DNA from: an uncultured Alphaproteobacteria bacterium
GTDB taxonomy: Bacteria; Pseudomonadota; Alphaproteobacteria; RF32; CAG-239
DNA length: 64,000 nucleotides
Direction: 5' to 3'
Assembly (NCBI GenBank): GCA_902464275.1
Contig: CABQIK010000002.1
Span: 14-64,013 of the forward strand
A program made the position numbers and the translations under genes. Of the stretch, positions 1-60,979 are shown in pieces. How positions within the stretch are numbered: position 1 is the first letter of the stretch; each line of letters starts with the position of its first letter. The notes under the pieces were generated by a model that saw only the letters and a list, made by a program, of their open reading frames with translations, was not told where the DNA came from and searched no databases.

Positions 1-45
1 AGCTAAAATCTTCTTAAATGCAACAATTTGAGGAGATTTTTTATT
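1..45 (+). promoter_or_regulatory. 3' part of the conserved pilin-family upstream element (truncated by window edge) with GAGGAG Shine-Dalgarno
   Basis: agctaaaatcttcttaaa...tttgaggagatttt matches the 3' half of the ~95-bp element found upstream of all 11 paralogs. Confidence 0.6.
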
Positions 46-711
46 ATGAAATCAGAAAACGGACGTTCAATGGTGGAGATGCTTGGCGTGCTTGCGATTA
101 TCGGGGTTTTGTCGGTCGGGGCGATTGCCGGTTACTCCAAAGCCATGTTCAAGTACAAACTCAATAAACACGCCGAAAGTTTTAACATGCTGTTAAATGA
201 GGCAATAAAACTCTATCCTGATTTACGCCGTCATTATGGTGAAGCAGAACGAGATACAACCGGTTTAAACGGCTTTTTTTATAAGACAGGCTCACTGCCC
301 GATGGCGTAATCTATAATAATACAAATAGCGAAATTACTGACGTTTTTAAAAATAAGTATTATTTACGCTATGCTACGGGAAAACGTGCAGACGGCTCTT
401 TTTATCCTTATTATTACATAGAAACATGGTTTAACCGTACCGGCAATAAAATGACTGACCGTGACCGCGAAATTTGCCGCAACTTTGCGCTTGTCGCCAA
501 AGAAAATGCCTCTGATATTCACACATTTGAGGTTCGCTCAATTTCATCTGAAGCCATGGATTACACTGACAGCACTTTATACGGCGATATTTCCGGCAAC
601 ACGACAAATCTGTTACGCAATGCTTCGGTTGTCCAAATAGATAAAATGTGCGACTCTTGCGATTCATCAATAGGTTGCGCCATGGTTCTTTATATCACCA
701 TTGAATACTAA
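46..711 (+). CDS. type IV pilin-like protein, paralog 1 (prepilin N-terminal cleavage/methylation domain)
   Basis: ATG at 46 lies 9 nt after GAGGAG; the track start at 28 is a TTG read-through of the SD. N-terminus MKSENG|RSMVEMLGVLAIIGVLSVGAIAGYSKAMFKYKLNK has Gly-1, Glu+5 and a ~20-aa hydrophobic helix. C-terminus has EICRN..AKEN and a Cys cluster. Confidence 0.8.
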   Translation: MKSENGRSMVEMLGVLAIIGVLSVGAIAGYSKAMFKYKLNKHAESFNMLLNEAIKLYPDLRRHYGEAERDTTGLNGFFYKTGSLPDGVIYNNTNSEITDVFKNKYYLRYATGKRADGSFYPYYYIETWFNRTGNKMTDRDREICRNFALVAKENASDIHTFEVRSISSEAMDYTDSTLYGDISGNTTNLLRNASVVQIDKMCDSCDSSIGCAMVLYITIEY

Positions 712-742
712 CTGATTTTGCTAAATTTACAACTTATGCAGG

Positions 743-1005
743 GTGCAAATAATTCCACTCCTGAGGAGGGGGGGCGGCGATAGCCGACAGGGTGGTTAAA
801 TATAAGGTTGGAAAGTAGGTTCAATTTACGTTTTTTATACTCTAAAACAAACATTTATCCTGTTGTGAAATAATAATATAACCACCCCGCCTTCGGCACC
901 CTTCCATAGAGGGGAATTTTAAAAGGCCGGCATATTCCATAGAGGGGAATTTTAAAAGACCGGTATGCTCCATAGAAGTGGAATTTTAAATTGCGGATTT
1001 AAATA
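743..1005. mobile_element. MITE-like non-coding element inserted upstream of pilin paralog 2. It has ~20-bp imperfect terminal inverted repeats, is flanked by direct repeats of acaacttatgca, and contains an internal 33-bp x3 tandem
   Basis: Left end aaaattccactcctgaggagg; right-end motif cc(a/t)ccatagaggggaatttt is the reverse complement. A homologous copy lies at 46095-46285. GC-rich stem segments (ggcggcg, ggggtggtt/aaccacccc) are unlike surrounding intergenic DNA. Confidence 0.5.
904..996. repeat. tandem repeat, 33-bp unit x ~2.8 (ccatagaggggaattttaaaaggccggcatatt)
   Basis: Three consecutive near-identical units read directly. Single-copy versions of the same motif occur upstream of paralogs 7, 8 and 9. 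Confidence 0.85.
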
Positions 1006-1098
1006 CAACTTATGCACAGCACAGACTCGTAAATATTGCAAAAAAAAAACGCGAGCTAAAATCTTCTCAAAACTAACTTTTTGAGGAGATTTTAGCTC
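1006..1098 (+). promoter_or_regulatory. conserved pilin-family upstream element: candidate -35 TTGCAA, A10 spacer tract, -10 TAAAAT, GAGGAG SD
   Basis: acaacttatgcacagcacagactcgtaaatattgcaaaaaaaaaacgcgagctaaaatcttc... is near-identical at all 11 loci. Confidence 0.6.
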
Positions 1099-1734
1099 AT
1101 GAATATACAATCGGGTCGGTCTATGGTGGAGATGTTAGGAGTTTTAGCGATAATAGGAGTCCTGTCCGTCGGGGCAATTGCCGGATATAGCAAGGCGATG
1201 ATGAAGTATAAACTCAATAAATATTCAGAACAAATGAACACTGTGATAAATGCCATTGCCCGCAATGCGCATAGTTTTGATAATATTTACTCGCAAAACG
1301 GCTCCTCAACTTCGTTAACGCCATATTTTGTAAAAATGGGTGAAATTCCAACCGAAATGGTAACATCTAACCCAGAATATCTTCGTGATATTTTCGGTAT
1401 GCGCTGGGTGATTGCGATGTCATCAGACAGTAAAAACATATTGCTCTCAAGCTATAATACTCCAAGTACCAAATCAGCCGACGAATTGGAAAGATGCCGC
1501 ACCTTTATTATGCTTGCCAAAGAAAATTCCGGTAATATTTCATATCTTAACACCGCTAGCGGTCATGGTACGTCATCGGCAAAATCAGCTTATCTATACG
1601 GTGATAATCTCTGCACTCCTGACCGCAAATGCTTAAAAAATGTAACTTTAGATAATATTTACGAAATTTGCACAGCGCAAGCCGGCGCAACTTCAGCCGT
1701 TGAAACTGCCATTTGGTGGCTAATCAGAGGTTAA
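1099..1734 (+). CDS. type IV pilin-like protein, paralog 2
   Basis: MNIQSG|RSMVEMLGVLAIIGVLSVGAIAGYSKAMMKYKLNK. Subfamily with QMNTVINA..KMGEIPTEMV..NILLSSY..AKEN..LYGD..C..DRKCLKN. Confidence 0.8.
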   Translation: MNIQSGRSMVEMLGVLAIIGVLSVGAIAGYSKAMMKYKLNKYSEQMNTVINAIARNAHSFDNIYSQNGSSTSLTPYFVKMGEIPTEMVTSNPEYLRDIFGMRWVIAMSSDSKNILLSSYNTPSTKSADELERCRTFIMLAKENSGNISYLNTASGHGTSSAKSAYLYGDNLCTPDRKCLKNVTLDNIYEICTAQAGATSAVETAIWWLIRG

Positions 1735-2189
1735 TCGCGGCCGTCAAAAATAGCCTGAAAAGCATAAGCGTACGGATCCGGCGCCGCATATTTTTGTTGG
1801 TCGGCATCATTAAGCGCCCGCACCCCGTCAGAGCTGCGCAGGGTTTCGGCTTTTTCGCTCATAACCGTTTGCAGATAGCGGCTAACATCGGTAAACACGC
1901 ATTTAATAACCACCAAACTTCCGTCAGGTTTTTGCGCCGGTTGATTGGTTTTTGAGTTGCGCACCACATACGGTTTAATTACTTCCGTATCGCCGCTGCC
2001 GCCAATGCCTTTGGCAAATTTACGGAATTTATGTTCATCGTCGCAAGGCGTTATTTGCTTAATTTCCGCAAGATAAAAGGCCATCGCCTGTTTTTCAAGC
2101 GCGGTAGCATTTTCATCGGCAAGACGGCTTTGGCAATGCTCTATGGCCGCACTTAATTTTTTAGCTTCATAACTCTGCCCGTTTTCCAT
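1731..2189 (-). CDS. hypothetical protein
   Basis: 152-aa ORF with no recognised motif. Its stop overlaps the stop of paralog 2 (convergent). Confidence 0.4.
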   Translation of the reverse strand: MENGQSYEAKKLSAAIEHCQSRLADENATALEKQAMAFYLAEIKQITPCDDEHKFRKFAKGIGGSGDTEVIKPYVVRNSKTNQPAQKPDGSLVVIKCVFTDVSRYLQTVMSEKAETLRSSDGVRALNDADQQKYAAPDPYAYAFQAIFDGRD

Positions 2190-2235
2190 ATTTAAGCCTC
2201 CATAAACAAAAAACCTGCATGCGCAGGTTTTAAAA

Positions 2236-2457
2236 TTAATCTTTGTGGCGGAAAGTAATGCGCCCTTTGGTTAAGTCATAAGGGGTCATTTCAATATCTA
2301 CTTTATCGCCAACCATCACGCGGATTCTGAATTTACGCATTTTGCCGGCGGTATGCGCCAAAATTTCAACTCCGTTTTCAAGTTTAACACGGAACATGGC
2401 GTTCGGCAGTTTTTCAATCACTTCACCGGTTAATTCCAAAAGTTCTTCTTTACTCAT
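2236..2457 (-). CDS. infA: translation initiation factor IF-1
   Basis: 72-aa S1-like protein: [46 protein letters not shown]. Confidence 0.9.
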
Positions 2458-2508
2458 AAAAAATCCTTTACATATAAGTTCAATTTGTTTCGGTATACCC
2501 TTTATTTT

Positions 2509-4176
2509 TTAATTTTGCAATTTTTTTCTTTTAGATTTTGGAAATTTTAGCAAAAAAGTTGTACCTTGATTAATTTCGCTGCTGACGCTGATTTCGCCTT
2601 TAAACTTTTCAACCAACGATTTGACAATGGCAAGCCCCAGCCCCGTGCCCTGATGGCGGCTGCTGCGCCCTTCGGAATAAAACGGTTCAAAAATATGCTG
2701 AAATTTATCTTTGGCAATGCCGACGCCGGTATCTTTTACCTCCACCGCCACGCTGTTTTTGTCTTTTGAGGTTTTAATACTTAAAGTGCCGCCCGAAGGC
2801 ATGGCCTTTAAGGCATTTTGCGATAAATTAAGGATAATCATCTTAAAATCTGCCTCACTGCCTAAAATATTATTTTCAGCGCTGTTAAAATCTGCTTCTA
2901 CCGTAACTCCGTTGCGTTTTGCCTCATAATCAAGCAGCGAGAGTACCTCTTCAATGCTCGGGCGAATATCAAAAACTTCTTGCTCATCAGTACTGTAATG
3001 AGCCAATTTGAGCAAACGCTCCGGAATCTCAATGCTGCTTACTATTTGGTTATAAATCATATTAAGATATTTTTTTTCTTTTGAACCTTCAGGTAAATCT
3101 TTAAATGATGTTTCCAATAAGCCCTCTAAAATCATACGCACAGAGCCTAAATTATTTTTCATTTCATGCGCGACGGAAGTTGCCAAAAAGCCGAGCGAGG
3201 CAATTTTTTGTTCATGTGAAAAACGAATATCGTCACTTAAATCGCGGATAGATTCCACAATATAAAAATCATCAGGCAACGCTGTGCTTTTAACCTTTAG
3301 GGGCGCCGCATTAATTGAAAGCGGCCTATCGCTAGCGGTTTGAATAATGCTGATGCTCTTTGAACCGGCGTGTTTAATTTCACGCAATGGGCAAGTAAAC
3401 ATACCAAGCGGACAAGGCTCGTTATATCCGCAGGCTTCATAACATTTAACATTTTCATCAGTGTTTTGAGTTTTAAACTGCTTAAAATAAGCTTTGTTAG
3501 CCAACACCACATTATAATTATGGTCTATCACCCTTATACCGTCAGGAATGGCATCAATCAATAACTGCAAAAATGTTTCAGTATTTTTAATGGCGGTAAT
3601 GTTGCTTTCAATATTATCAATCATGGTGTTAAAGGTTTTGGCGAGCGTGTCAAACTCATCAAAAAATATTTGCTTTTTGCCAAGCAGAATCCGGTGCGAA
3701 AAATCACCGCCGGAAACGAGTTTGCTGGCATCTGTCAGGCGCTTAATCGGCACAATTACCCATTTTTGCAGCAAAAAGCCCAAAATCATGATTGACAGAA
3801 ACGAGAGCAACGAGCTGACGGCAATTATTTTGGCGCCTTCAGTGAAAGCTTTGGTGCGCTCGTCATAATTTTTTTGCAAATCCTGATTAAGTTTTTGCTC
3901 GCGCGAAAGTTCTTCCTGTTTTTGCCCCAAGTCGCCGCTTACAACCGCTTCACTCTCATGGGATAGCGTAACATTGGCGCGGTTAAGCTCACGGCGCAAG
4001 GCAATATTTTCATACAACAGCTCCATAACGTACTGATTGCGCAAAAAGATAGAGTTTTTATCTTCCTGATATTTTTTGCTGTATATGTTCAAAAACATTG
4101 AAAAGAACAGCCCGGCCATAAAAATAAAAAATACAAAAAACGTATAAAAAATTTTTTTATTTAAACTGAAATACAT
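2509..4176 (-). CDS. sensor histidine kinase (TM - HAMP - Cys-rich PAS-like - HisKA - HATPase_c)
   Basis: H-box HEMKNNLGSV and G2 box GTGLGLAIVKSLVE. PAS-like region carries CYEACGYNEPCPLGMFTCP. No response regulator adjacent. Confidence 0.7.
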   Translation of the reverse strand: MYFSLNKKIFYTFFVFFIFMAGLFFSMFLNIYSKKYQEDKNSIFLRNQYVMELLYENIALRRELNRANVTLSHESEAVVSGDLGQKQEELSREQKLNQDLQKNYDERTKAFTEGAKIIAVSSLLSFLSIMILGFLLQKWVIVPIKRLTDASKLVSGGDFSHRILLGKKQIFFDEFDTLAKTFNTMIDNIESNITAIKNTETFLQLLIDAIPDGIRVIDHNYNVVLANKAYFKQFKTQNTDENVKCYEACGYNEPCPLGMFTCPLREIKHAGSKSISIIQTASDRPLSINAAPLKVKSTALPDDFYIVESIRDLSDDIRFSHEQKIASLGFLATSVAHEMKNNLGSVRMILEGLLETSFKDLPEGSKEKKYLNMIYNQIVSSIEIPERLLKLAHYSTDEQEVFDIRPSIEEVLSLLDYEAKRNGVTVEADFNSAENNILGSEADFKMIILNLSQNALKAMPSGGTLSIKTSKDKNSVAVEVKDTGVGIAKDKFQHIFEPFYSEGRSSRHQGTGLGLAIVKSLVEKFKGEISVSSEINQGTTFLLKFPKSKRKKLQN

Positions 4177-4187
4177 ACCGTTCCCTC

Positions 4188-4910
4188 TTATTTAAAAATT
4201 TGCAAAAACTGTTCTTTATCATTAATCATTAAATACGGATTGCACTGCTTTTCAAGCCCTAACGTAATCGGCTTATCGGGGGTTTTTGCAGTCAGGCGCG
4301 AATATGCCGACGCCAAATATTTTTCCAGAGCCGGAGTTTGCCCGCGCGCCATAGCCATACGCAGAGCTCCCGCCGTATATTCATGTCCGGCATAAAAGGC
4401 AACGTCATCAGGCAGAGCTTTAATTTTTTGCAGGCTGTTCCACATTTGCTCGGGAGTGCCTTCAAAAATTCCGCCGATGCACAAATTAAACAAAACATCG
4501 CCGGTAAATAAAACCTTGTCATCGGGAAAATACCACAAAATGTGTCCGAGCGTATGTCCGGGAGCGGCAATTACCCGCGCTTTGCTTTGCCCTAAAAAAA
4601 ATTCATCGCCGTCTTTAAGAGCTATATCAAGGTCAGCGATAAGTTTTTTTTCAGCCTCGGGGCCGACAATTTTTAAACCGTACCGTTTTTTAAGTTCGGC
4701 ATTGCCGCCAACGTGGTCAAAATGGTGGTGAGTGGTTAAAATGTATGACGGATTAAGCTTTAAGGCCTCGCACATAATTTTTACCGGTTCCGCCTCGGAA
4801 GCATCAACCACCGCCGTTGTTCCGGTGGCTTCATCGGTGATAATATAAGCGTAATTATCCATAACTCCGGCGCGGCACAAAACCGGCTTAATCTTTAAAC
4901 TCATATTCAT
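4188..4910 (-). CDS. gloB: hydroxyacylglutathione hydrolase (glyoxalase II, MBL fold)
   Basis: THHHFDHVGG metal-binding motif; ~240 aa. Confidence 0.75.
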   Translation of the reverse strand: MNMSLKIKPVLCRAGVMDNYAYIITDEATGTTAVVDASEAEPVKIMCEALKLNPSYILTTHHHFDHVGGNAELKKRYGLKIVGPEAEKKLIADLDIALKDGDEFFLGQSKARVIAAPGHTLGHILWYFPDDKVLFTGDVLFNLCIGGIFEGTPEQMWNSLQKIKALPDDVAFYAGHEYTAGALRMAMARGQTPALEKYLASAYSRLTAKTPDKPITLGLEKQCNPYLMINDKEQFLQIFK

Positions 4911-5817
4911 TCTCCAACGTGGCTTCGTCTAAATAAAAAAAGCGGTAGTAAGTTACAACGTAATCAAGCAAACCGGCATAATTTTGCAAATTGCTGTTTA
5001 AGATAAACGTCCAATCCATGCGCTTGCCGTAAACCACGCTGCCGCGGCGGCGCGATTCCGCCCGCGAGTTCCAAAACTGCTCAAAATTAATGTTAGAATT
5101 GGCTTTAATCGCAAAAGCGCGCATACTGCTTTCAAGCGACGGGTAAATGGTGTAACGGTACGAATTGTCATCTTCACCGATTGGAATTAAGCCCTTATCG
5201 GTATACCAATCGCGAGCTTTGTACAGGTTGTTGCCCAAAACCGCAAGGCGCGATGTTCCCCAATCGGTGGCAACGGCGGCAATGCTCACCAAAATTGAGG
5301 GCGGCACCACATCAACGCGCCGGATTAACTCGTTTAATATCAGCGTATAACGGCGAGTATCCTTAAACGGAGTGCTCACATCGTATTTTTTTGCCATTTT
5401 TTCAAGATAGTACATATCGGTTTTTTGAAAATCGCGGTCAGCCTCAAAAGCCTCCTGCAACGCCATTAAATTTTCGCGCTCTTCCAAAAATTCTTGGTTA
5501 ATTTTGAGCGCAAGCGGCATTAAAATTTGGATAAAAAGGCGGTTGCGCACGGTGGCGTCTTCCATAGAGGCAAAATCAGCCGGAATGTTTTTTACAAAAA
5601 TGCGCGGATATTCGTTTCCGGCCGGATTGATATATTCATCATACTGCAAATACGCAAACATTTTTTGCAGCTCGTCAGTAGTAAAATCAGCCATATAAAC
5701 GCCGCTTTCGGTAATGTTCATTTTGGCATCGGTATCAGCGGCGGTTTTAGGTTCAGCGGCAAAGGCAAAAGCCGAAATCAGGCAACAAATTATTAAGGTT
5801 AAAAATTGTTTTATCAT
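4888..5817 (-). CDS. secreted glucosaminidase-domain protein (Bax/FlgJ-like)
   Basis: Signal peptide MIKQFLTLIICCLISAFAFA. ATDWGTSRLAVLGNNLYKAR resembles the FlgJ-type glucosaminidase motif. Start chosen at the second ATG, which has an AAGG RBS. Confidence 0.45.
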   Translation of the reverse strand: MIKQFLTLIICCLISAFAFAAEPKTAADTDAKMNITESGVYMADFTTDELQKMFAYLQYDEYINPAGNEYPRIFVKNIPADFASMEDATVRNRLFIQILMPLALKINQEFLEERENLMALQEAFEADRDFQKTDMYYLEKMAKKYDVSTPFKDTRRYTLILNELIRRVDVVPPSILVSIAAVATDWGTSRLAVLGNNLYKARDWYTDKGLIPIGEDDNSYRYTIYPSLESSMRAFAIKANSNINFEQFWNSRAESRRRGSVVYGKRMDWTFILNSNLQNYAGLLDYVVTYYRFFYLDEATLENEYEFKD

Positions 5818-5842
5818 GTGCTTACCTTTGCGCAAATATTAA

Positions 5843-12230: not shown

Positions 12231-12308
12231 AATTAAAAAAAAATTTGGTTTAGGTTATTAACCTAACACAGCCGCGAGCAGTAATCAAGTTATTTTTTTG
12301 ACAAAATG

Positions 12309-20686: not shown

Positions 20687-20779
20687 CAACTTATACACAG
20701 CACGGACTCGTAAATATTGCAAAAAAAAAACGCGAGCTAAAATCTTCTTAAATTTAACAATTTGAGGAGATTTTAGCTC
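20687..20779 (+). promoter_or_regulatory. conserved pilin-family upstream element (TTGCAA 20717-22, A10 20721-30, TAAAAT 20738-43, GAGGAG 20764-69)
   Basis: Same element as at the other paralogs. Confidence 0.6.
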
Positions 20780-29376: not shown

Positions 29377-29379
29377 GCG

Positions 29380-29470
29380 CAACTTATGCACAGCGCGGAC
29401 TCGTAAATATTGCAAAAAAAAAACGCGAGCTAAAATCTTCTCAAAATTAACTTTTGAGGAGATTTTAGCT
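29380..29470 (+). promoter_or_regulatory. conserved pilin-family upstream element
   Basis: caacttatgcacagcgcggactcgtaaatattgcaAAAAAAAAAAcgcgagctaaaatcttc...gaggag. Confidence 0.6.
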
Positions 29471-30112
29471 ATGAAATCAGAAAATGGTCGTTCTATGGTG
29501 GAAATGCTCGGCGTATTAGCAATTATCGGCGTTCTGTCCGTTGGGGCGATTGCCGGTTATTCTAAAGCCATGTTCAAGTACAAGCTTAACAAACATGCGG
29601 AACAGATGAATACGCTGATTAATGCCGTGGCGCGCAATGTGCACAACTTTAATAATATCGGCGGTAGCACAACCATAGTGCCGTATCTTGTCAAAATGGG
29701 TGAAATTCCGACTGAAATGGTAAAAACAAACGTCAATAATTTTGTATATGATATTTTCGGGCAAGCTTGGCTGATTTTCATCGCCAGTGATGCTCAAAAC
29801 ATTTTGCTTTCATCATATTCAACTAAAGGCGCATCATCACTTACCGCCAAATCAGCCGACAATTTGGAAATTTGCAAAAACATATTGCTCGCCGCCAAAG
29901 AAAATCATGACAGTATTGTAAGAGTTTATTCAGTCAGCAACCATAATACCAGTGATGAAAAACAAAAAACACTATACGGTGATACTCTTTGTAATACAGA
30001 TCGCACTTGCTTAAAAGATGTGAGTTTAAATGACATTTATGATTTTTGCACTAAACATTACGGCATAAACTCCGCATCAGGCACAGAACTTGCCATAACT
30101 TGGCAACGGTAA
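29471..30112 (+). CDS. type IV pilin-like protein, paralog 4
   Basis: MKSENG|RSMVEM...; subfamily A (QMNTLINAVARNVH..KMGEIPTEMVKTNVNNFVYDIFGQ..). The track N-terminal extension is rejected. Confidence 0.8.
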   Translation: MKSENGRSMVEMLGVLAIIGVLSVGAIAGYSKAMFKYKLNKHAEQMNTLINAVARNVHNFNNIGGSTTIVPYLVKMGEIPTEMVKTNVNNFVYDIFGQAWLIFIASDAQNILLSSYSTKGASSLTAKSADNLEICKNILLAAKENHDSIVRVYSVSNHNTSDEKQKTLYGDTLCNTDRTCLKDVSLNDIYDFCTKHYGINSASGTELAITWQR

Positions 30113-30831: not shown

Positions 30832-30897
30832 TAAACACCTCTGTTAAATCAGAGTTTACAAAATATATTTTACAGTTGCAAGCAAAAATCCCGAATA

Positions 30898-30989
30898 CAA
30901 CTTATGCACAGCGAAGACTCGTAAATATTGCAAAAAAAAAACGGGAGATAATATTATTTTAAAAGTAACATTTTGAGGAGATTTTTATC
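30898..30989 (+). promoter_or_regulatory. conserved pilin-family upstream element (variant with cgggagataatatt after the A10 tract)
   Basis: caacttatgcacagcgaagactcgtaaatattgcaAAAAAAAAAAcgggag...gaggag. Confidence 0.55.
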
Positions 30990-39690: not shown

Positions 39691-39787
39691 AATGCCTCCG
39701 ACAAAGATGTATAAAGTATAGCAAATATATGATAAAAATCAAGCGACAAACGATGCGGGCAGTTGTTAAATAATTTCAGACCAAATA

Positions 39788-39880
39788 CAACTTATGCACA
39801 GTGCAGACTCGTAAATATTGCAAAAAAAAAACGCGAGCTAAAATCTTCTCAAAACTAACAATTTGAGGAGATTTTTTATT
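39788..39880 (+). promoter_or_regulatory. conserved pilin-family upstream element
   Basis: caacttatgcacagtgcagactcgtaaatattgcaAAAAAAAAAAcgcgagctaaaatcttc...gaggag. Confidence 0.6.
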
Positions 39881-40507
39881 ATGAAATCAGAAAATGGTCG
39901 GTCTATGGTGGAAATGCTCGGAGTTCTGGCTATTATCGGGGTGTTGTCGGTCGGCGCTATTGCCGGTTACTCCAAGGCAATGTTTAAGTATAAATTAAAT
40001 AAGCAAGCGGAAGGGTTTAACCTGCTGTTAAATAACGCTTTGCAACTTGAAGGAAGCTTGAATTTTACCCCCGATGCCGTAACTTATTACGGTGATTTAT
40101 TTAAAAAGCTTAACCTGATACCGGACGGTTTTAAGTATGAATCAAATTTTAGATTAAAAGACATGTTCAATAATGATATTTGGATTTATCATCATGACAA
40201 TTTAAATGGTAACGATTTACATTTCAGCGCTATCGGATATAAATTTCAACCCTCCTCGCAAGGCGCCGAGCTCTGCCGCAACATTGTGATAACCGCTAAA
40301 GAAAACGCAGCCGATTTATACGCGCTGACCACCACAAAATATAATAATGACGGAAGCTATAATCCGTCACAGGGAACTTTATACGGCGATAAGTTTTGCG
40401 ATGCCTCCGACAAACCCTGCATGCGCAATTTGACTTTAGATAAAATAGCCGGACTTTGCCATATATGTAACGAACAAACTTGCGACTTATATATAGAATG
40501 GCAATAA
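39881..40507 (+). CDS. type IV pilin-like protein, paralog 6
   Basis: MKSENG|RSMVEM...; subfamily B (..LIPDGFKY..IYHH..SSQGAELCRNIVITAKENAADLY..LYGDKFC....PCMRNLTLDKI..LCHICN). Confidence 0.8.
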   Translation: MKSENGRSMVEMLGVLAIIGVLSVGAIAGYSKAMFKYKLNKQAEGFNLLLNNALQLEGSLNFTPDAVTYYGDLFKKLNLIPDGFKYESNFRLKDMFNNDIWIYHHDNLNGNDLHFSAIGYKFQPSSQGAELCRNIVITAKENAADLYALTTTKYNNDGSYNPSQGTLYGDKFCDASDKPCMRNLTLDKIAGLCHICNEQTCDLYIEWQ

Positions 40508-46094: not shown

Positions 46095-46285
46095 AATTCC
46101 ACTCCTGAGGAGGGGGGCGGCGCTAGCCGACGGGGTGGTGAAAATATAAGGTTAAAAATTATACTTAATTTACGGTTTTTTGTAATATAAAACAAATATT
46201 TAATACGCTGTTAAACAGTGCAATAACCACCCCGCCTTCGGCACCCCTCCATAGAGGGGAATTTTTTATAGTGCCAATTTACATA
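46095..46285. mobile_element. second copy of the MITE-like element (aattccactcctgaggagg ... ccatagaggggaattttttatagtgccaatttacat) immediately upstream of the paralog 7 promoter
   Basis: ~75-80% identical to 751-1005. Flanked by a degenerate acaatttatgtaca (46069-46083) and an exact acaacttatacaca (46286-). Confidence 0.5.
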
Positions 46286-46378
46286 CAACTTATACACACC
46301 CCAGACTCGTAAATATTGCAAAAAAAAAACGCGAGCTAAAATCTTCTTAAATTTAACTTTTTGAGGAGATTTCAGCTC
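46286..46378 (+). promoter_or_regulatory. conserved pilin-family upstream element
   Basis: caacttatacacaccccagactcgtaaatattgcaAAAAAAAAAAcgcgagctaaaatcttc...gaggag. Confidence 0.6.
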
Positions 46379-51156: not shown

Positions 51157-51402
51157 TACTTATATTAAAAATGAGAAATTCATATCTCAAAAACAGCTTA
51201 TTTTTCTATTTTTGAGAAACGCATATCTCAAAAATGGTTGACTTTTGTAAAATGAGCATGTGCTTTAGAGCCAAATACTGTTTATGTTTCGGTTCCTGCA
51301 AATAAAAACAAACTATTAATGTGTTGCAAAACAGTGCAATAACCACCCCGCCTTCAGCACCCCTCCTCGGGATGGGAATTTTTTATAGTGCCAATTTACA
51401 TA

Positions 51403-51493
51403 CAACTTATACACACCCCGGACTCGTAAATATTGCAAAAAAAAAACGCGAGCTAAAATCTTCTTAAAAGTAACTTTTGAGGAGATTTTAGCT
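51403..51493 (+). promoter_or_regulatory. conserved pilin-family upstream element, preceded at 51305-51402 by the right half of the MITE-like element
   Basis: ...accaccccgccttcagcacccctcctcgggatgggaattttttatagtgccaatttacat | acaacttatacacaccccggactcgtaaatattgcaA10... Confidence 0.6.
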
Positions 51494-52147
51494 ATGAAAT
51501 CAGAAAATGGTCGTTCTATGGTGGAAATGCTCGGGGTATTGGCGATAATCGGAGTGCTGAGTGTCGGGGCGATTAGCGGATATAGCAAAGCCATGTTTAA
51601 GTACAAACTCAATAAACATACGGAACAAATGAACACAGTGATAAACGCAGTTGCCCGCCATGCGCACAGCTTTGATAATATCCAACACAGAGATTCTTTA
51701 ATTCCATATTTTATTAAAATGGGCGAAATTCCAACTGAAATGGTGAGCACAAACGATGGTTACTACATCTTTGACGTTTTCAGACAGGCATGGTATATAC
51801 GTATTGAAGGCGGCGCTATAGTTTTAGCCTCAATGTATGATGTCGGTTCATCATTTTTATCCTCATTTTTATCCTCAAACTCTCCTGAAAATCTGGCAAT
51901 ATGTCAAAATACGTTAAACATCGCCAAAGAAAACGCGGATAACATAGATACTATTGTGATATACACGGCTAACTCCGGTTCCGCTAATAATAAATTTGAG
52001 TATATATTGGGTGATAAACTTTGTACCGCTGAATATATGCAATACGACAAATGTTTGAAAAACTTAACCTTAAATGATGTTCATACTCTCTGCACCGAAC
52101 AGTTAAAAAACGGCTATGGGTTATTCCAGTTATCATGGGAACAATAG
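51494..52147 (+). CDS. type IV pilin-like protein, paralog 8
   Basis: MKSENG|RSMVEM...AISGY; subfamily A. Confidence 0.8.
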   Translation: MKSENGRSMVEMLGVLAIIGVLSVGAISGYSKAMFKYKLNKHTEQMNTVINAVARHAHSFDNIQHRDSLIPYFIKMGEIPTEMVSTNDGYYIFDVFRQAWYIRIEGGAIVLASMYDVGSSFLSSFLSSNSPENLAICQNTLNIAKENADNIDTIVIYTANSGSANNKFEYILGDKLCTAEYMQYDKCLKNLTLNDVHTLCTEQLKNGYGLFQLSWEQ

Positions 52148-52277
52148 TAATAACATTTGAGCGCTATTATTTTTCAACAAAAACAAACAATTAATGCGCT
52201 GATAGATAGTAATGAGACCACCCCGCCTTCGGCACCCCTCCTCGGGATGGGAATTTTTTATAGTGCCAATTTACATA

Positions 52278-52368
52278 CAACTTATACACACCCCAGACTC
52301 GTAAATATTGCAAAAAAAAACGCGAGCTAAAATCTTCTTAAATTAACAATTTTAGGAGATTTTTTATT
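52278..52368 (+). promoter_or_regulatory. conserved pilin-family upstream element, the only copy with an A9 instead of an A10 tract (52312-52320). Preceded at 52181-52277 by the right half of the MITE-like element
   Basis: The A-run was counted directly in all 11 copies: ten are A10, this one is A9. Confidence 0.6.
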
Positions 52369-53019
52369 ATGAAATCAGAAAATGGACGTTCAATGGTAGA
52401 AATGCTTGGCGTGCTCGCGATAATCGGCGTTCTGTCGGTCGGGGCGATTGCGGGGTACAGCAAGGCGATGTTCAAATATAAACTCAACAAACAAGCAGAA
52501 AGTTTCAATATGCTATTGAACACTGCCATACAAATACAACCTGATTTAGACCGCACGCATAATACCGGAGCACTTGGCGGCAACCGTTTGCTTTATCAAG
52601 CAGGGCTTATCCCTGACGGCATGAGTTATAAAAATGGTATAATTTATGATATATTTAATCACGAAATTATCAGTAATTATGTAACCAGCATGGTGCCTGG
52701 TGAAAATCATTATACCGAATATAAATTAATATATGACATTGGATACGGCTCTGAACAAAGCATAGAAATCTGCCGCAATATGCTTAATGTTGCTAAAGAA
52801 AATGCCGCTGATTTACCGTTCATAAAATTACGTTACGCCAAAACTTCCACGGACTCTGACGTTAGTGAAAACCGCATTTACGGTGATAAAGGGTGCACAG
52901 GCGACAATATTTGTTTGCGCAATATGGGAGTAAAACAAGCTGACGACTTTTGTTCCCCTTGCACTTCTGAAAATTACTGCGCTATTCTGTTTTCTATATA
53001 CTTTAAGGACTTGCTTTAA
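52369..53019 (+). CDS. type IV pilin-like protein, paralog 9
   Basis: MKSENG|RSMVEM.... Its variable region starts AESFNMLLN like paralog 1, then diverges. 6 Cys. Confidence 0.8.
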   Translation: MKSENGRSMVEMLGVLAIIGVLSVGAIAGYSKAMFKYKLNKQAESFNMLLNTAIQIQPDLDRTHNTGALGGNRLLYQAGLIPDGMSYKNGIIYDIFNHEIISNYVTSMVPGENHYTEYKLIYDIGYGSEQSIEICRNMLNVAKENAADLPFIKLRYAKTSTDSDVSENRIYGDKGCTGDNICLRNMGVKQADDFCSPCTSENYCAILFSIYFKDLL

Positions 53020-53143: not shown

Positions 53144-53145
53144 AT

Positions 53146-55107: not shown

Positions 55108-55128
55108 AATGCGTATTTCCGATAGAAA

Positions 55129-55155
55129 GGCACCCGTGCACGGATGCCTTTTTTA
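55129..55155 (+). terminator. rho-independent terminator (ggcacccgtg/cacggatgcc + T7)
   Basis: Hairpin followed by a T-run. Overlaps the track's upstream start of the next ORF, which supports the 55201 start. Confidence 0.55.
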
Positions 55156-55200
55156 TATAAAGGCAAAAATGTTTTCGGCACACATATTTACGGAGATAAA

Positions 55201-56565: not shown

Positions 56566-56592
56566 TCGGCATGTTATTTTGCAGGGGCGCGT

Positions 56593-57399
56593 ATGGTCAA
56601 TGTATCAGTCATAATTCCGGTTTACAACTGCCAAAAGTTTTTGAAGCACTCTGTTCAATCGGTTTTGAACCAAACATACAAAAATTGGGAGCTCATAATT
56701 GTTGATGACGCCTCAACCGACGGTTCATTGTCTGAGGCTCGGCGCTTGGCTGAAGACAATCCGAAAATAAAGGTTTTTGCGCTGCCTGAAAATAAAGGAG
56801 TCAGCGCTTGCCGCAATTTTGCCATAAGTAAAGCGCAAGGACGTTATTTGGCATTTTTGGATTCTGACGACTTGTGGGCAAAAAACAAGTTAGCCGCGCA
56901 ATTAATGTTTATGCAGCAAAAAAAGGCGGCGCTGTCACATACGGCTTATTCATTTATTGATGAAAAAGGCCGCGTTATGGAAGCCGGCAAGGTTGAAGTT
57001 GATGAATGTATCAATTTGCCGACCTACATGAAAACCACTCAAATCGGGATGTCTACGGTAATGATTGACCGCCAAAAAATCGGCGCGGTGCATTTTCCGA
57101 ATGACCGCGAATTGTGTGAAGACGCGCGCACATGGATGCACTTTTTACGAAAAGGCCAACAATTTTACGGCTTAAACATTGTTTCAACATTATACAGAGT
57201 GCGAAAAAATCAGCTGAGCAAAAACAAAGCCAAAATGGCGCAATGCACGCTGAAAAGATATTGGAACGAGCGCAATCTGCCTGCGTATAAAAGGCTGTAC
57301 TATTTTGTAAATTACGCGTGCAACGGATTTTTAAAACGCATGCGGCCGACTAAAATCAGCCCTGAAATTATTGCGCAATTTAACTGCAATCAACGATAA
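56593..57399 (+). CDS. family 2 glycosyltransferase
   Basis: VSVIIPVYNCQKFLKHSVQSVLNQTYKNWELIIVDDASTDGS (GT-A DxD region). Confidence 0.8.
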   Translation: MVNVSVIIPVYNCQKFLKHSVQSVLNQTYKNWELIIVDDASTDGSLSEARRLAEDNPKIKVFALPENKGVSACRNFAISKAQGRYLAFLDSDDLWAKNKLAAQLMFMQQKKAALSHTAYSFIDEKGRVMEAGKVEVDECINLPTYMKTTQIGMSTVMIDRQKIGAVHFPNDRELCEDARTWMHFLRKGQQFYGLNIVSTLYRVRKNQLSKNKAKMAQCTLKRYWNERNLPAYKRLYYFVNYACNGFLKRMRPTKISPEIIAQFNCNQR

Positions 57400-57418
57400 A
57401 GAGCTTAAAGATATTTGC

Positions 57419-58186
57419 TTAAACAAGCAAAACCATGCCGTCATACGCCAAACGCCAGTTTTCAGGCACAAGCGCGGATAGCGTATTATAGTCAACCCTT
57501 GCCGATAAATGGGTTAACACCACCTGCTCCGGTTTTAAGATATTAACATAGTGTTTTATTTTAGCAATATTGCTGTGACCGTTGTTAAGCTCATATTCGC
57601 CGTTATTGCACTCGGCCAACAACATTTTAAGCCCTTGCATACGTTCTAAAGCTTTTGGGGGCAAACTTTCCCAATCGGTAACATACGCAACATCGCCAAA
57701 CCTGAAAGCGGAACTGTGTAAATTATGATGCGGCACGCAAAAAGTTTCAAATTCAACCCCGCCGATATTAACTTTTCCGAAATCAGGCAATATATTCCAC
57801 TGAAGGCGCACGCTATCAGGCTCCGCGCCGCTGAACAAATAAGCATAACTTTTTTGCAGTTCGCTCATGGTTTCAGCGCTTGCAAAAACCGGCAAGACAT
57901 GGTTTAAGATTTTACAGGCTCGCGGCAATTCAGGCACGCCGCCGATATGGTCATAATGGCAGTGAGTTAACAAAACCGCGTCAATATTTTGCACATTGTT
58001 ACGATTGATTTGCAATCTGAAATCAGGTCCGACATCAATTAAAAAATTTTTACCTTGAAACTCAAATAAAACGCAAGCGCGGGTACGCTCATTTTTAGGA
58101 TTATGCGGGTCAGCCAAATTCCACTGATTAAAACACATCGGGCAACCATAAGCCGAACCGGAACCGAGGATAGTAATTTTCATCAT
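57419..58186 (-). CDS. MBL-fold metallo-hydrolase (PhnP/RNase Z-like)
   Basis: THCHYDHIGG motif. Start at MMKITILGSGSAYGCP; the track's upstream extension is rejected. Confidence 0.65.
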   Translation of the reverse strand: MMKITILGSGSAYGCPMCFNQWNLADPHNPKNERTRACVLFEFQGKNFLIDVGPDFRLQINRNNVQNIDAVLLTHCHYDHIGGVPELPRACKILNHVLPVFASAETMSELQKSYAYLFSGAEPDSVRLQWNILPDFGKVNIGGVEFETFCVPHHNLHSSAFRFGDVAYVTDWESLPPKALERMQGLKMLLAECNNGEYELNNGHSNIAKIKHYVNILKPEQVVLTHLSARVDYNTLSALVPENWRLAYDGMVLLV

Positions 58187-58309
58187 AAGCACTCCATTTT
58201 TCAGACGCCGTATCAGGATATAGCATGACAGTATGCTTCTGTCCAGATAAAAAATTGTAGTCATTGTTGTTATAAACGGCACAAACAAATTTGACTCTTG
58301 CCGGAAAAT

Positions 58310-58324
58310 GTTCTATGTTTGTTC
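58310..58324 (+). promoter_or_regulatory. alphaproteobacterial-type LexA box GTTC-N7-GTTC, abutting the polymerase start codon
   Basis: gttctatgtttgttc at 58310-58324; the ATG is at 58326. Confidence 0.55.
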
Positions 58325-58325
58325 T

Positions 58326-59507
58326 ATGAAGAGAATAATAGCGTTAATTGACTGCGATTGCTTTTTTGTTTCATGCGAACGGGTGGACAATCCTGATTTG
58401 CAAAACAAACCGGTGTGCGTTATGACCGGCGGCGACCGAGGCATTATTGTTTCGCGTTCCATTGAGGCCAAAGCTTTAGGCATTAAAATGGGCGCGCCGT
58501 ATTTTAAGGTTAAAGTTGAGCAGCCGGAGGCAATATGTCTGCCCGCCCGTCACTATCTTTATCGCCAGATTTCCGAAAAAGTGATGAACGTTATCCGCTC
58601 TTTTACTCCTGATGTGGAAGTTGTATCGGTTGATGAGGCTTTTACCGACCTTACCGGACTTAATAAAGTGCACCGCTCCACCTACACACAGCTGATTACG
58701 GATATCCGCACCGCTGTATTAAAACAAACCGGAATTCCGGTTTCAATCGGGCTTTGCTCATCAAAAACTTTGGCTAAACTTGCGAGCGATAAAGCTAAAA
58801 AATGCGGCGGAATTTATGTAATAAGGCCGGAAACAGAGGCTATTTTACAAAAAGTCGGTAATGATTTTATTGATACGGTAAGCGGCATCGGGCGTGAAAA
58901 CACCAAACATCTGCGCTTGAATAACATCGTGACCATTAAAGATTTTGTCAGCAAAGACGATGCCTGGCTGCGCAAAGCTTTCGGCATTAACGGCGTTAGC
59001 TTAAAGCATGAGCTTTTAGGAGAAACGGTTTCTGCTGTAAATTCTAAACCGGAACCGCCGCAATCAATTCAAGACACCAAAGCATTTGCGGATTTTTCAT
59101 GCAACTTAGAGTTTTTACATTCCACCTTAGCGGCGCATATTCATAACTCTTCAAAAAAACTGCGAATGTGGAACGGATATTGCGCTCATATTTCCGTTAT
59201 GCTGCGCACTAAAGATTTTGCGGTTTTTGAAGCCGATGAAAAATTGCAAAAGCCTACCAATTCAGAAAAAACCTTGCGCGACGCCGCCCACCGCATTTTA
59301 GACCGACTTTTCAGGCGCGGCGTTATTTATCGAGCAAGCGGAGTTACTTTAGGTGATTTAAGCTTTGGCAAAAAACAACAATTTTCATTGTTTGACAATT
59401 TAGAGCCGGAAGACGATAAACTGTCGCATATTATAGATTCGTTAGAAGAAAAATTCGGCTCCGGAATAATTAAAATCGGCGCACCTGACAAAAAAGCAGA
59501 AAAATAA
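58326..59507 (+). CDS. Y-family DNA polymerase (UmuC-like)
   Basis: MKRIIALIDCDCFFVSCERVDNPDLQNKPVCVMTGGDRGIIVSRSIEAKALGIKMGAPYFK, compare UmuC ...GCVIARNAEAKALGVKMGDPWFK. Start at the ATG following the LexA box. Confidence 0.75.
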   Translation: MKRIIALIDCDCFFVSCERVDNPDLQNKPVCVMTGGDRGIIVSRSIEAKALGIKMGAPYFKVKVEQPEAICLPARHYLYRQISEKVMNVIRSFTPDVEVVSVDEAFTDLTGLNKVHRSTYTQLITDIRTAVLKQTGIPVSIGLCSSKTLAKLASDKAKKCGGIYVIRPETEAILQKVGNDFIDTVSGIGRENTKHLRLNNIVTIKDFVSKDDAWLRKAFGINGVSLKHELLGETVSAVNSKPEPPQSIQDTKAFADFSCNLEFLHSTLAAHIHNSSKKLRMWNGYCAHISVMLRTKDFAVFEADEKLQKPTNSEKTLRDAAHRILDRLFRRGVIYRASGVTLGDLSFGKKQQFSLFDNLEPEDDKLSHIIDSLEEKFGSGIIKIGAPDKKAEK

Positions 59508-59534
59508 TTATATATTCTTTTAAGGAGATATATA

Positions 59535-60032
59535 ATGCCGGTTTTCGTTAATGATAAAATGCAAAATAACTATGTATATGAGCGGGTTTCACCAGAAGGC
59601 AAAAATTTTGCCCCTGATTTTAAGCCTGAACTTTCACCGATACAAATGCTTGCTATGGGGGTGTTTGAAGGGCATTACTTAAATGATTGCCTATATGAAT
59701 TTCCTGAAAATTGGTTTACAGGTGCGCGATTGTCATTAAATAAACCGGATATAAATTGCAACTGTTTTCAAATAAAATCACGTCTTTCCTTGCAGGAATG
59801 GCGGCGCAAAGGTTGGATATTATATCCTGATCCGCGCGGTTGGTTTCAGTGGTATTGCCGATATTATAGCGGCAGACGTATTCCTGAAATTGATATTGTG
59901 CAAATAAATCGCTGGAAGGCGTTTCGGCGGCATTTGGCACAAATTGAGCATAATTGCGCGCAATTTGACTTTGAATGTCGCCCCAAACAACGCCAGGCTT
60001 TATTGCAGTGGGCATACAATCCGCTGTTTTAA
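59535..60032 (+). CDS. hypothetical Trp/Cys-rich protein, probably co-transcribed with the Y-family polymerase
   Basis: AAGGAG RBS 7 nt before the ATG; 165 aa; no recognised motif. Confidence 0.45.
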   Translation: MPVFVNDKMQNNYVYERVSPEGKNFAPDFKPELSPIQMLAMGVFEGHYLNDCLYEFPENWFTGARLSLNKPDINCNCFQIKSRLSLQEWRRKGWILYPDPRGWFQWYCRYYSGRRIPEIDIVQINRWKAFRRHLAQIEHNCAQFDFECRPKQRQALLQWAYNPLF

Positions 60033-60038
60033 TCAATA

Positions 60039-60130
60039 CAACTTATGCACAGCACGGACTCGTAAATATTGCAAAAAAAAAACGCGGAGTAAAATCTTCT
60101 TAAATTAACTGTTTTGAGGAGATTTTTAAT
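60039..60130 (+). promoter_or_regulatory. conserved pilin-family upstream element (variant: cgcggagtaaaatc)
   Basis: caacttatgcacagcacggactcgtaaatattgcaA10cgcggagtaaaatcttc...gaggag. Confidence 0.55.
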
Positions 60131-60886
60131 ATGAAATCACATTTTAGCCGCTTTTTACACATCACATCGTCATATTCGGGCTTGACCCGAATATCCAGGT
60201 GGAAAAAATTTGCTACTTGGTTTGACCTGGACACTCCGGTCAAGCCCGATAATGACAGCTTGTGTGCTGGTCGGTCTATGGTGGAAATGCTTGGCGTTCT
60301 GGCAATTATCGGAGTCTTATCCGTCGGGGCGATTGCCGGATACAGTAAAGCGATGTTTAAGTACAAATTAAATCAGCATGCACAAGCGGTTAATATGTTG
60401 ATAAATAATGCGCTTTCAATTAAAGATCAATTACAACATAAACTTAACGCGACCACATATTACGGAACCCTGTTGCACAAAATGAATCTGTTACCCGACG
60501 GTATAGAATATATTTCTGATACCACATTAAAAGAAAAGTATTTCAATAGCAATATTATGGTTTATTATATGCATAAGGAAGGTTTTGAAGACTTTGGCGG
60601 AATAGAGTTTAGCTTCAATCCCACAGCACAAGGTGCGGAAGTTTGCCGCAACATTGCATTTGCCGCCAAAGAAAATGCCGCTAATTTATGGGAGCTTGAA
60701 ACATATAAATATTTTAATGACACAACTTCAGGTGACGGTAAATTCATCGGGCATATATACGGTGATTCCTATTGTACAGAAGAAAAAAGCTGCCTGCGTG
60801 ATTTGGACTTAAACAAAATAGAAAAATTGTGCAACGATTGCAATGAAAAACGTTGCATGTTGTATGTTTTGTGGGAAAACCGCTAA
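60131..60886 (+). CDS. type IV pilin-like protein, paralog 10, with a ~123-bp in-frame palindromic insertion in the leader (leader 47 aa instead of 6)
   Basis: MKS[HFSRFLHITSSYSGLTRISRWKKFATWFDLDTPVKPDNDSLCA]G|RSMVEM.... Insertion bounded by the 11-bp IR cgggcttgacc (60177-87) / ggtcaagcccg (60238-48), with an inner IR tccaggt / acctgga. The mature part is subfamily B. Confidence 0.65.
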   Translation: MKSHFSRFLHITSSYSGLTRISRWKKFATWFDLDTPVKPDNDSLCAGRSMVEMLGVLAIIGVLSVGAIAGYSKAMFKYKLNQHAQAVNMLINNALSIKDQLQHKLNATTYYGTLLHKMNLLPDGIEYISDTTLKEKYFNSNIMVYYMHKEGFEDFGGIEFSFNPTAQGAEVCRNIAFAAKENAANLWELETYKYFNDTTSGDGKFIGHIYGDSYCTEEKSCLRDLDLNKIEKLCNDCNEKRCMLYVLWENR

Positions 60887-60889
60887 ATA

Positions 60890-60979
60890 CAACTTATGCA
60901 CAGCACGGACTCGTAAATATTGCAAAAAAAAAACGCGGAGTAAAATCTTCTCAAAACTAACTTTTTGAGGAGATTTTTT
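60890..60979 (+). promoter_or_regulatory. conserved pilin-family upstream element, starting 3 nt after the stop of paralog 10
   Basis: caacttatgcacagcacggactcgtaaatattgcaA10cgcggagtaaaatcttc...gaggag. Confidence 0.55.

Follow-up and report, generated by a model that had tools for sequence, protein, structure and literature searches.

In Mycoplasma hyorhinis, the vlp lipoprotein genes form a multigene surface-protein family with highly conserved 5′ regions, poly-A tracts between the −35 and −10 hexamers and independent switching of its members. The fimbrial promoters of fim2, fim3 and fimX in Bordetella pertussis and B. bronchiseptica share a 'fim box' and a 'C-stretch', the spacing of which matters; the length of the tract varies among strains and affects transcript level (PMC1891110). 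In Neisseria meningitidis, two alleles of the nspA promoter that segregate among strains differ by a single base in a poly-A tract (5A versus 6A), and this difference determines whether the surface protein is expressed at a low or a high level (PMC6389960). Here we describe an element of about 95 nucleotides (nt) that lies upstream of type-IV-pilin-like genes in a 64-kb stretch of DNA (contig CABQIK010000002.1, hereafter the window; G+C 42%) from an uncultured alphaproteobacterium. The element is a new example among the homopolymer-containing promoters of surface-protein families, in uncultured gut Alphaproteobacteria, and it has an architecture of its own: besides a DnaA-box-like site it has a TTGC box that stands a fixed 17 nt from the −10 hexamer, and an anti-Shine–Dalgarno (anti-SD) palindrome spans the putative start site. 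We give an even chance to the reading that joins these features, in which the element would be the shared, spacing-constrained promoter and leader cassette of a very large pilin-like family, with slippage alleles that change expression.

As in Bordetella with its fimbrial subunit genes, the paralogous pilin-like genes here share a common conserved promoter element. By contrast with the fim genes, the tract is poly-A rather than poly-C, is shorter (mode 10 or 12) and has a much narrower length distribution. Its upstream partner is a TTGC box with a DnaA-box-like site, where Bordetella has a BvgA site, and there are tens of copies per genome instead of three to four, known here from sequence alone. 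The vlp tracts are about 17–20 A long and vary widely, and the vlp genes are clustered, whereas the paralogs described here are dispersed singly; switching has been demonstrated for vlp and is hypothetical here. nspA differs from the pilin-like family in being a single gene with a short tract and another promoter layout. A 'rheostat allele', as for nspA, rather than a rapid switch, is what would most likely fit the pilin-like promoters. If tract length does tune them, widespread gut Alphaproteobacteria would possess a very large, individually adjustable pilus-like repertoire; such surface repertoires have so far been documented mainly in pathogens (Bordetella, Neisseria and Mycoplasma).

A shared element upstream of the pilin-like genes

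A survey of open reading frames (ORFs) in the window yielded 11 pilin-like paralogs, all on the + strand and 203–251 amino acids (aa) long, which we number 0 to 10 (ATGs at 46, 1099, 20780, 29471, 30990, 39881, 46379, 51494, 52369, 60131 and 60980). They have in common the N terminus G|RSMVEMLGVLAIIGVLSVGAIAGYSKAM(F/M)KYKLN. The initial annotation had placed the element before all 11 genes, and we found it complete before 10 of them; because the window starts inside the eleventh element, of which only the last 45 nt precede the ATG at 46, the check was limited to these 10 copies. The 23-mer CTCGTAAATATTGCAAAAAAAAA occurs 10 times, always on the + strand, versus 0 occurrences expected from shuffles. 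In an alignment the element starts abruptly at ACAACTTAT, about 97 nt 5′ of the ATG; the next 10 nt vary, and a near-invariant block comes after them. Among the complete elements, nine carry A10 and one carries A9 (52312–52320); the A9 copy had been reported as such, and the A10 copies number nine rather than ten. The sole other homopolymer of at least 9 nt in the window is an intergenic A9 at 12235–12243, between two − strand genes, which could act as an internal control when slippage is analysed in reads. The copies in the window are:

1–45, + strand: 3′ part of the element of paralog 0, with the end of the linker, −10 TAAAAT at 4–9, leader and SD; nhmmer match at 2–43 to model positions 58–99
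1005–1098, + strand: element of paralog 1, with TTATGCACA at 1010–1018, GACTCGTAAATATTGC at 1024–1039, A10 at 1040–1049, linker CGCGAGC, −10 TAAAAT at 1057–1062 and SD GAGGAG at 1083–1088; inverted repeat GAGCTAAAATCTTCTCAAAA / TTTTGAGGAGATTTTAGCTC from the −10 to the start codon
20686–20779, + strand: element of paralog 2, with TTATACACA at 20691–20699, A10 at 20721–20730 and −10 at 20738–20743
29379–29470, + strand: element of paralog 3, with TTATGCACA at 29384–29392, A10 at 29414–29423 and −10 TAAAAT at 29431–29436; within a gene-conversion tract
30897–30989, + strand: element of paralog 4, the most divergent copy, with A10 at 30932–30941, linker CGGGAGA and −10 TAATAT at 30949–30954
39787–39880, + strand: element of paralog 5, with A10 at 39822–39831 and −10 at 39839–39844; orthologs carry A9 (L212) and A8 (L004)
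46285–46378, + strand: element of paralog 6, with A10 at 46320–46329 and −10 at 46337–46342; orthologs L196 and L197 carry A9
51402–51493, + strand: element of paralog 7, with TTATACACA at 51407–51415, A10 at 51437–51446 and −10 at 51454–51459
52277–52368, + strand: element of paralog 8, with TTATACACA at 52282–52290, A9 at 52312–52320, −10 at 52328–52333 and the SD weakened to TAGGAG; five orthologs carry A10
60038–60130, + strand: element of paralog 9, with A10 at 60073–60082, linker CGCGGAG and −10 at 60090–60095
60889–60979, + strand: element of paralog 10, with A10 at 60924–60933, linker CGCGGAG and −10 at 60941–60946

The element is laid out as TTATNCACA, 5 variable nt, GACTCGTAAATATTGC, poly-A, CGCGAGC, TAAAAT and a short leader. 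We collected about 190 unique copies from 12 related gut metagenome-assembled genomes (MAGs) and several metagenomes, drawing on the same proteins in other samples, on relatives in the 12 MAGs and on a pattern scan of metagenome contigs. In all copies the poly-A tract stands between the TTGC box and a TAnnAT hexamer, which comparison among copies suggests is the −10. We set promoter coordinates from a putative start at the first A, 7 nt after TAAAAT. TTATNCACA would then lie at −59 to −51, ahead of 5 nt that vary freely, and GACTCGTAAATATTGC, a conserved box ending in the −35-like TTGC, at −45 to −30; the poly-A tract and a 7-nt linker would lead to the −10 hexamer TAAAAT, and the predicted leader of about 35 nt would be unstructured and carry the SD GAGGAG.

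The choice of TAAAAT as the −10 in the initial annotation held up on several grounds. A canonical sigma-70 −10 of the TAnnnT type is present in 165 copies, as TAAAAT (129), TAGAAT (16), TAATAT (10), TATGAT (4), TATAAT (3), TACAAT (2) or TAAAGT (1), with T1, A2 and T6 invariant. In related MAGs the same cassette is found 5′ of non-pilin genes (Cys-rich secreted proteins and others), and there the similarity ends right after the hexamer. All clades have a C/T-A step, the usual context of a start site, 6–8 nt past the hexamer (TAAAAT-CTTCTC-A, TATGAT-GAGCTC-A and TAGAAT-GACGAGC-A). Additionally, GCTAAAAT fits 7 of the 8 positions of the Caulobacter RpoD −10 consensus, GCtANAWC (PMC13004042, PMC8144410). 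Together these features suggest that transcription starts about 7 nt after TAAAAT. The presence of the module upstream of non-pilin genes points to a regulon wider than the pilin-like family, and the pattern GACTCGTAAATATTGC-An-CGCGAGCTAAAAT provides a sequence handle on the cassette for public metagenomes and metatranscriptomes.

The non-pilin loci with the cassette include L021:822–900, L083:1385–1470, L131 and L158, where signal-peptide Cys-rich proteins begin MSNKFKMLAV... or MSRNFKFF....

Other identities for the element or its parts were tried and set aside. For a sigma-54 promoter with TTGCA as the −12, the nearest GG is 3 nt too far upstream and is unconserved (AGACTC for GGACTC in 4 of 10 window copies). 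Inspection for sigma-28, sigma-32 and CtrA-box readings gave no consistent match over the clades. A hairpin plus T10 on the opposite strand could be read as an intrinsic terminator, but 11 nt separate the T-run from the stem and no gene lies upstream on that strand. The middle box holds GACTC, a GANTC site (1024–1028 in the window and the same position in every element), and GANTC is the CcrM methylation motif of Alphaproteobacteria. GANTC sites are neither enriched nor depleted in the window (112 versus 129.5 expected), and the site in the box is lost in two clades; we keep it as a lead only.

Conservation, spacing and tract length

The element is more conserved than synonymous sites of the genes behind it. 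For the pair that the initial annotation numbered 4 and 6 (ATGs at 29471 and 39881, paralogs 3 and 5 here), it had given the first 45 codons as 100% identical in protein with about 22 synonymous differences, and about 8 differences upstream. We found 43 of the 45 codons to be identical in protein, so the full identity does not stand; the synonymous codons hold 24 nucleotide differences, and the upstream region differs at 13 of 97 aligned columns when flank and gaps are included, or at about 9 positions in the element proper. When all 45 paralog pairs are taken together, 48% of the codons for a shared residue differ, versus 13% per site in the 97-nt upstream region. Seven of the 10 window copies have the same 39-nt core, which runs from GACTCG to TAAAAT.

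This conservation extends to other genomes. In syntenic stretches, housekeeping DNA is 89–95% identical to the window in the MAG JAJWCP, 91% in CALETM (one stretch) and 86% in CAVBCV (one stretch of 10.4 kb); in CALXZJ, CALXZI and SUUV, housekeeping identity is about 70–72%. The core is unchanged in MAGs with 86–94% housekeeping identity, and its blocks are retained even at about 70%, where the element reads ...TTATCC(A/C)CA-N3-GACTCTTTAAAATTGC-A12-CGGTT-TAGAAT.... Conservation at this distance, beside a segment that varies freely, argues for purifying selection rather than homogenization alone, as the initial annotation had proposed for the upstream DNA.

Gene conversion also acts on the element. 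A scaffold from another sample (L174) is 98.4% identical to the window over 20.6 kb, and a tract at 29388–29605, comprising the element and first 45 codons of paralog 3, holds 33 differences, of which the coding ones are all synonymous; the rest of the gene and the flank hold 5. The view that the paralogs are old and free of gene conversion is thus only partly upheld: this tract contradicts the second part, and the synonymous divergence has not been erased by conversion. As the tract covers the element together with the N-terminal codons, the conserved 5′ module is a recombination substrate, although gene conversion cannot account for conservation of the element between genera. In other samples, identical proteins occur behind differing element variants and differing flanks, and some of these cases may be assembly chimeras.

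On contig k119_3356 (L178/L197), compared with the window at 51494–53019, a P6-type gene follows P7 at the P8 position and carries the upstream half of P8's element, including its A9. Either recombination within the element has exchanged the cassette, or the contig is an assembly chimera.

The distance from TTGC to the −10 hexamer is 17 nt in 136 of 180 copies (those with a −10-like hexamer 4–8 nt after the tract). It is reached in three ways:

A10 with a 7-nt linker: 116 copies
A12 with a 5-nt linker: 18 copies
A9 with an 8-nt linker: both copies that have this linker

That three combinations of tract and linker arrive at the same distance indicates that total spacing is selected, not tract length itself. 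Within each linker class the tract lengths are strongly concentrated:

7-nt linker: A8 in 2 copies, A9 in 26, A10 in 124 (77%), A11 in 7 and A12 in 2
5-nt linker: A8 in 2 copies, A9 in 1, A10 in 1, A11 in 5, A12 in 23 and A13 in 2

In this arrangement the A-tract fixes the TTGC-to-(−10) distance, which stabilizing selection holds at 17 nt. The part of the original proposal of TTGCAA-N15-TAAAAT that concerns this role of the tract is consistent with these counts.

We also observed that tract length is polymorphic between strains. At orthologous loci, defined by identical proteins in other samples, 10 of 67 observations were off-modal (A8, A9 or A11), usually on otherwise identical flanks, and 6 of 12 loci were polymorphic; these are consensus lengths taken from assemblies. 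Control homopolymers of 7–8 nt varied in 1 of 76 observations (Fisher p = 0.003 versus the A-tracts), a comparison that is generous to hypervariability because the control tracts are not as long and many of them are coding. By these counts the A-tract is the most length-variable site in these genomes. The modal length was kept in 85% of the orthologous observations, and the polymorphism is no higher than the approximately 0.16 substitutions expected per 10 nt at the strain divergence of 1.6%.

Alleles of ±1 segregate among conspecific strains because the spacer is a homopolymer that gains and loses bases. Their most likely effect would be to reduce, or in some other way alter, the output of the promoter concerned. 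Slippage alleles do exist; they probably change promoter strength, for which the selected 17-nt spacing is indirect support, and would give heritable, copy-specific differences in expression.

A predicted leader hairpin, the DnaA-like box and rival readings

The inverted repeat GAGCTAAAATCTTCTCAAAA / TTTTGAGGAGATTTTAGCTC covers both the −10 and the SD. Folding energies range from −14 to −29.5 kcal/mol if transcription comes from upstream of the linker and from 0 to −2.7 kcal/mol from the predicted start. The pyrimidine run just 5′ of this start, together with the −10, would mirror the SD region; with this mirror image upstream of the start, read-through transcripts would fold a 14–20-bp hairpin that hides the SD, and transcripts from the element's own promoter would not. 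In IS10 and IS50, fold-back inhibition of transposase translation works in this way: sequence 5′ of the element's own start complements the ribosome-binding site, and read-through transcripts fold and are silenced. The upstream sequence of our element likewise complements its SD, a likeness that follows from geometry, with weak covariation and a putative start. The hairpin is possibly a device that silences read-through transcripts. Among 105 distinct leaders, 86% of the cells of the hairpin pair, versus at most 63% in slid controls and 84.7% in the shuffled control. An Rfam 15 search of the window returned two tRNAs and no match at the elements, and a known RNA family was rejected on that ground.

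The left block of the element matches the DnaA-box consensus TTATNCACA (PMC4447404), and its sole varying base (G, A or C) falls at the degenerate N position. It reads TTATGCACA or TTATACACA in the window and TTATCCACA, TTATCCCCA, ATATCCACA or TTATCCACC in other clades. The window holds 11 matches to the consensus versus 2.5 expected, and 10 of them lie within elements. The box is perfect in 130 of 160 elements and has one mismatch in 22, and 163 of the 241 perfect boxes in 1.3 Mb of related loci lie in elements. The initial annotation had called for a search for a transcription factor that binds the element; given an exact consensus match with variation confined to the degenerate position, DnaA is a candidate for this regulator. 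We know of no description of a DnaA box repeated before dozens of paralogous surface-protein genes. DnaA binds boxes outside oriC, in some cases as a transcription factor (PMC4447404); like promoters regulated in this manner, the element has an exact box, by sequence match, and unlike them it has one box per promoter and not a cluster.

It is conceivable, if rather unlikely, that DnaA bound at about −55 controls at least 50 dispersed pilin-like promoters, each also set by a slippage-prone poly-A spacer and made blind to read-through by the anti-SD palindrome. If this were true, DnaA control would tie the variable surface repertoire to replication or growth state, and the high-affinity boxes, being so numerous, would act as a large sink that titrates DnaA; with each copy shielded from read-through by the palindrome, its output would depend on its own tract-dependent promoter alone.

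Outside the elements, the sole cluster of DnaA boxes in the 1.3 Mb consists of three perfect boxes within 340 nt at L066:9469–9804, an intergenic site beside coaE-like and dnaQ-like genes. An origin, or some other site under DnaA control, may lie here.

Several observations count against the promoter and leader cassette as we have drawn it. No canonical −35 hexamer lies 16–18 nt upstream of the −10; TTGCAA is at 15 nt. In a census of the intergenic DNA of these genomes, with ORFs masked, TTGnnn-Nx-TAnnnT sites peaked at x = 17 with 157 sites and at x = 16 with 110, and were rarest at x = 15 (50), so the hexamer pair of the original proposal has the least common spacing in these genomes, yet it is this spacing that selection maintains. 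A scan with the standard sigma-70 consensus made no call at TTGCAA-N15-TAAAAT. In the Caulobacter notation (TTGaCgS / GCtANAWC) the gap is 12 nt, within the range of 10–19 nt used in that work (PMC8144410). Given the rare spacing and the missed call, TTGC may belong to an activator site instead of being a true −35. Either the box would be contacted with an atypical geometry, or an activator would bind there and have to stand at a set distance from the −10, as has been proposed for the promoters of the Bordetella fim genes (PMC1891110). For the hairpin, covariation is weak, with a single truly compensatory pair, and about 40% of copies leave the outer stem unpaired (58% of its cells pair). The DnaA box was recognized post hoc, stands singly at each promoter rather than in a cluster, and lies at a distance from TTGC that differs by 2 nt between clades. 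Frequent conversion among copies could alone keep the copies of one genome alike.

Three other accounts of the element have to be set beside the promoter and leader cassette. In the model of the initial annotation the tracts are contingency loci, at which reversible, high-frequency slippage turns promoters on and off and so produces combinatorial or antigenic pilus variation. A homopolymer spacer is retained in every clade and in hundreds of copies, though any 10–12 nt would give the same spacing, and the 64 kb hold only one other homopolymer of at least 9 nt; because spacing is under functional constraint, changes in length should have an effect. The polymorphism on identical flanks at half of the 12 loci, the diversifying C-terminal domain of a large and probably surface-exposed family, and the precedent of Bordetella, where homopolymer length affects transcription of fimbrial paralogs (PMC1891110), fit this model too. 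The lengths themselves fit it less well: their distribution is narrow and strongly unimodal (A8–A12 in the 7-nt-linker class), the mode is mostly kept between orthologs at a level of indel polymorphism that does not exceed the substitutions expected, and the consensus lengths give no sign of heterogeneity within populations, whereas the Bordetella tracts range more widely among strains (10–15 for fim2 and 13–18 for fim3; PMC1891110). We regard rapid switching of this kind as plausible but less likely than not.

We consider both remaining accounts improbable. According to one, transcription starts further upstream, for instance with an extracytoplasmic function (ECF)-type sigma factor at ACAACTT...CTCGTAAAT, and the A-tract, TAAAAT and the inverted repeat lie in a leader of about 75 nt, whose SD hairpin exerts translational control as an RNA switch, a thermometer or a protein-opened hairpin. 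The 20-bp inverted repeat over TAAAAT and the SD (−28 to −29.5 kcal/mol, z about −10) and its excess of pairing over slid controls favour such a leader, and the conserved/variable/conserved pattern of the upstream half resembles a −35, spacer and −10; ACAACTT-N16-CGTAAA in the window is loosely like ECF promoters of the GGAACTT-N16-TC type. However, the diagnostic AAC and CGT are unconserved in other clades, where TTATCCACA and GACTCTTTAAAATTGC are conserved instead, and for this reason we rejected an ECF-type promoter. The interval that separates these two boxes shifts by 2 nt from clade to clade, and by 1–4 nt in some copies, and inspection of the sequence upstream gave no canonical sigma-70 pair. 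Non-pilin genes retain the cassette up to TAnnAT and then diverge, as expected of a promoter and not of a leader, the variation within TAnnAT suits a −10 hexamer, and the hairpin, with its weak covariation and often broken outer stem, matches no Rfam family. The other account attributes the conservation mainly to concerted evolution, in which the element is a substrate for recombination or cassette exchange, or the boundary of a mobile cassette, homogenized by conversion, and the A-tract has no regulatory meaning. The conversion tract between near-identical strains, the identical proteins behind different elements and flanks and the P6-type gene at the P8 position agree with this, as do the sharp left boundary and the duplicated left ends around an inserted repeat at some loci. 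Conversion within a genome, however, cannot explain persistence of the blocks at about 70% housekeeping identity or the free 5-nt segment, and it leaves unexplained the constant 17 nt reached through three combinations of tract and linker. The adjoining N-terminal codons are also converted, yet are highly diverged at synonymous sites, and some of the differing-context cases may be assembly chimeras at the repeat.

The pilin-like family and its genomic setting

The proteins encoded behind the elements carry a prepilin-like signal that was seen by eye, G|RSMVE, with Gly at −1 and Glu at +5. Pfam N_methyl scored 12.6–16.7 bits in 6 of 7 paralogs, below its cut-off of 21.2, and TIGR02532 scored 13.4–15 against a cut-off of 16.3. 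An AlphaFold2 (AF2) model (pLDDT 82) shows an N-terminal helix of 54 residues together with an alpha/beta head; a Foldseek search of the model against PDB gave no match with E < 0.1, and the sole pilin matches were weak ones to the minor pilin CofB. One homolog has been named 'pseudopilin PulG' by a metagenome source. With motif scores below cut-off and no significant PDB neighbour, we use the label 'type-IV-pilin-like'. The family is probably surface-exposed, with a diversifying C-terminal domain. Its members in the window are:

46–711, + strand: paralog 0, 221 aa
1099–1734, + strand: paralog 1, 211 aa
20780–21400, + strand: paralog 2, 206 aa
29471–30112, + strand: paralog 3, 213 aa
30990–31649, + strand: paralog 4, 219 aa; identical to database protein P0001 and modelled with AF2
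39881–40507, + strand: paralog 5, 208 aa
46379–46990, + strand: paralog 6, 203 aa
51494–52147, + strand: paralog 7, 217 aa
52369–53019, + strand: paralog 8, 216 aa
60131–60886, + strand: paralog 9, 251 aa; 46-residue leader from a palindromic in-frame insertion of about 135 nt (about 60140–60269)
60980–61687, + strand: paralog 10, 235 aa; 44-residue leader of a second type (MFILKNN...)

Long leaders of 44–46 residues thus precede G|RSMVEML in two paralogs (60131–60269 and 60980–61112). The insertion of about 135 nt forms a long palindrome, with a folding energy of −56.7 kcal/mol over 150 nt, and is present or absent among strains at one locus with identical flanking codons (L004:8991–9752 versus L001:18891–19517); the length of 250–290 aa of many database members of the family has the same cause. 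It looks like a small palindromic mobile element that has entered the cleaved leader in frame, and recalls the Rickettsia palindromic elements.

The genes are dispersed singly amid housekeeping genes, including those for a histidine kinase, MurJ, KsgA, SurA, LptD, LptF/G, GrpE and glycogen synthase; further neighbours encode thymidine phosphorylase, AsmA, PrmA, an aminopeptidase, Fic and XerC/D. The 11 paralogs all lie on the + strand, and the other ORFs of at least 150 aa number 16 on the + strand versus 28 on the − strand. With a slightly negative GC skew of the + strand (−0.03), this hints weakly that the pilin-like genes may run opposite to most other genes and possibly head-on to replication.

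The family is very large. It matches more than 7,800 database clusters, nearly all without a name, one of them titled 'MAG: ... Alphaproteobacteria bacterium', and a scan of genomes found at least 586 genomic stretches with relatives. One metagenome alone, ERZ1034928, returned 47 loci with the upstream element. A literature search on this lineage and pili found nothing relevant. The family is also carried by a MAG titled 'Lachnospiraceae bacterium isolate H07603-L1_cleanbin_000017' (CAVBCV01 contigs, including L012, L016 and L019); at 86% identity to the window in syntenic housekeeping DNA, this title is almost certainly a taxonomic mislabel.

Metagenome contigs very often terminate within the element (for example, L005–L009, L094–L100, L176, L179–L181, L192 and L205–L207). 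Assemblies of these organisms are broken up by the repeat, which can also produce chimeric joins, and this breakage probably explains the wrong or extended start calls in many homologs.

A terminator-like module, CCACCCCGCCTTCGGCACCCCTCCATAGAGGGGAATTTTTT, lies just 5′ of the element of paralog 6:

46227–46268, + strand: terminator-like module; other copies at 882–916, 51343–51378 and 52218–52253

At related loci the module occurs in both orientations, often just upstream of the element, and some of its copies are flanked on both sides by duplicated ACAACTTATGCACAG..., as if inserted into the element.

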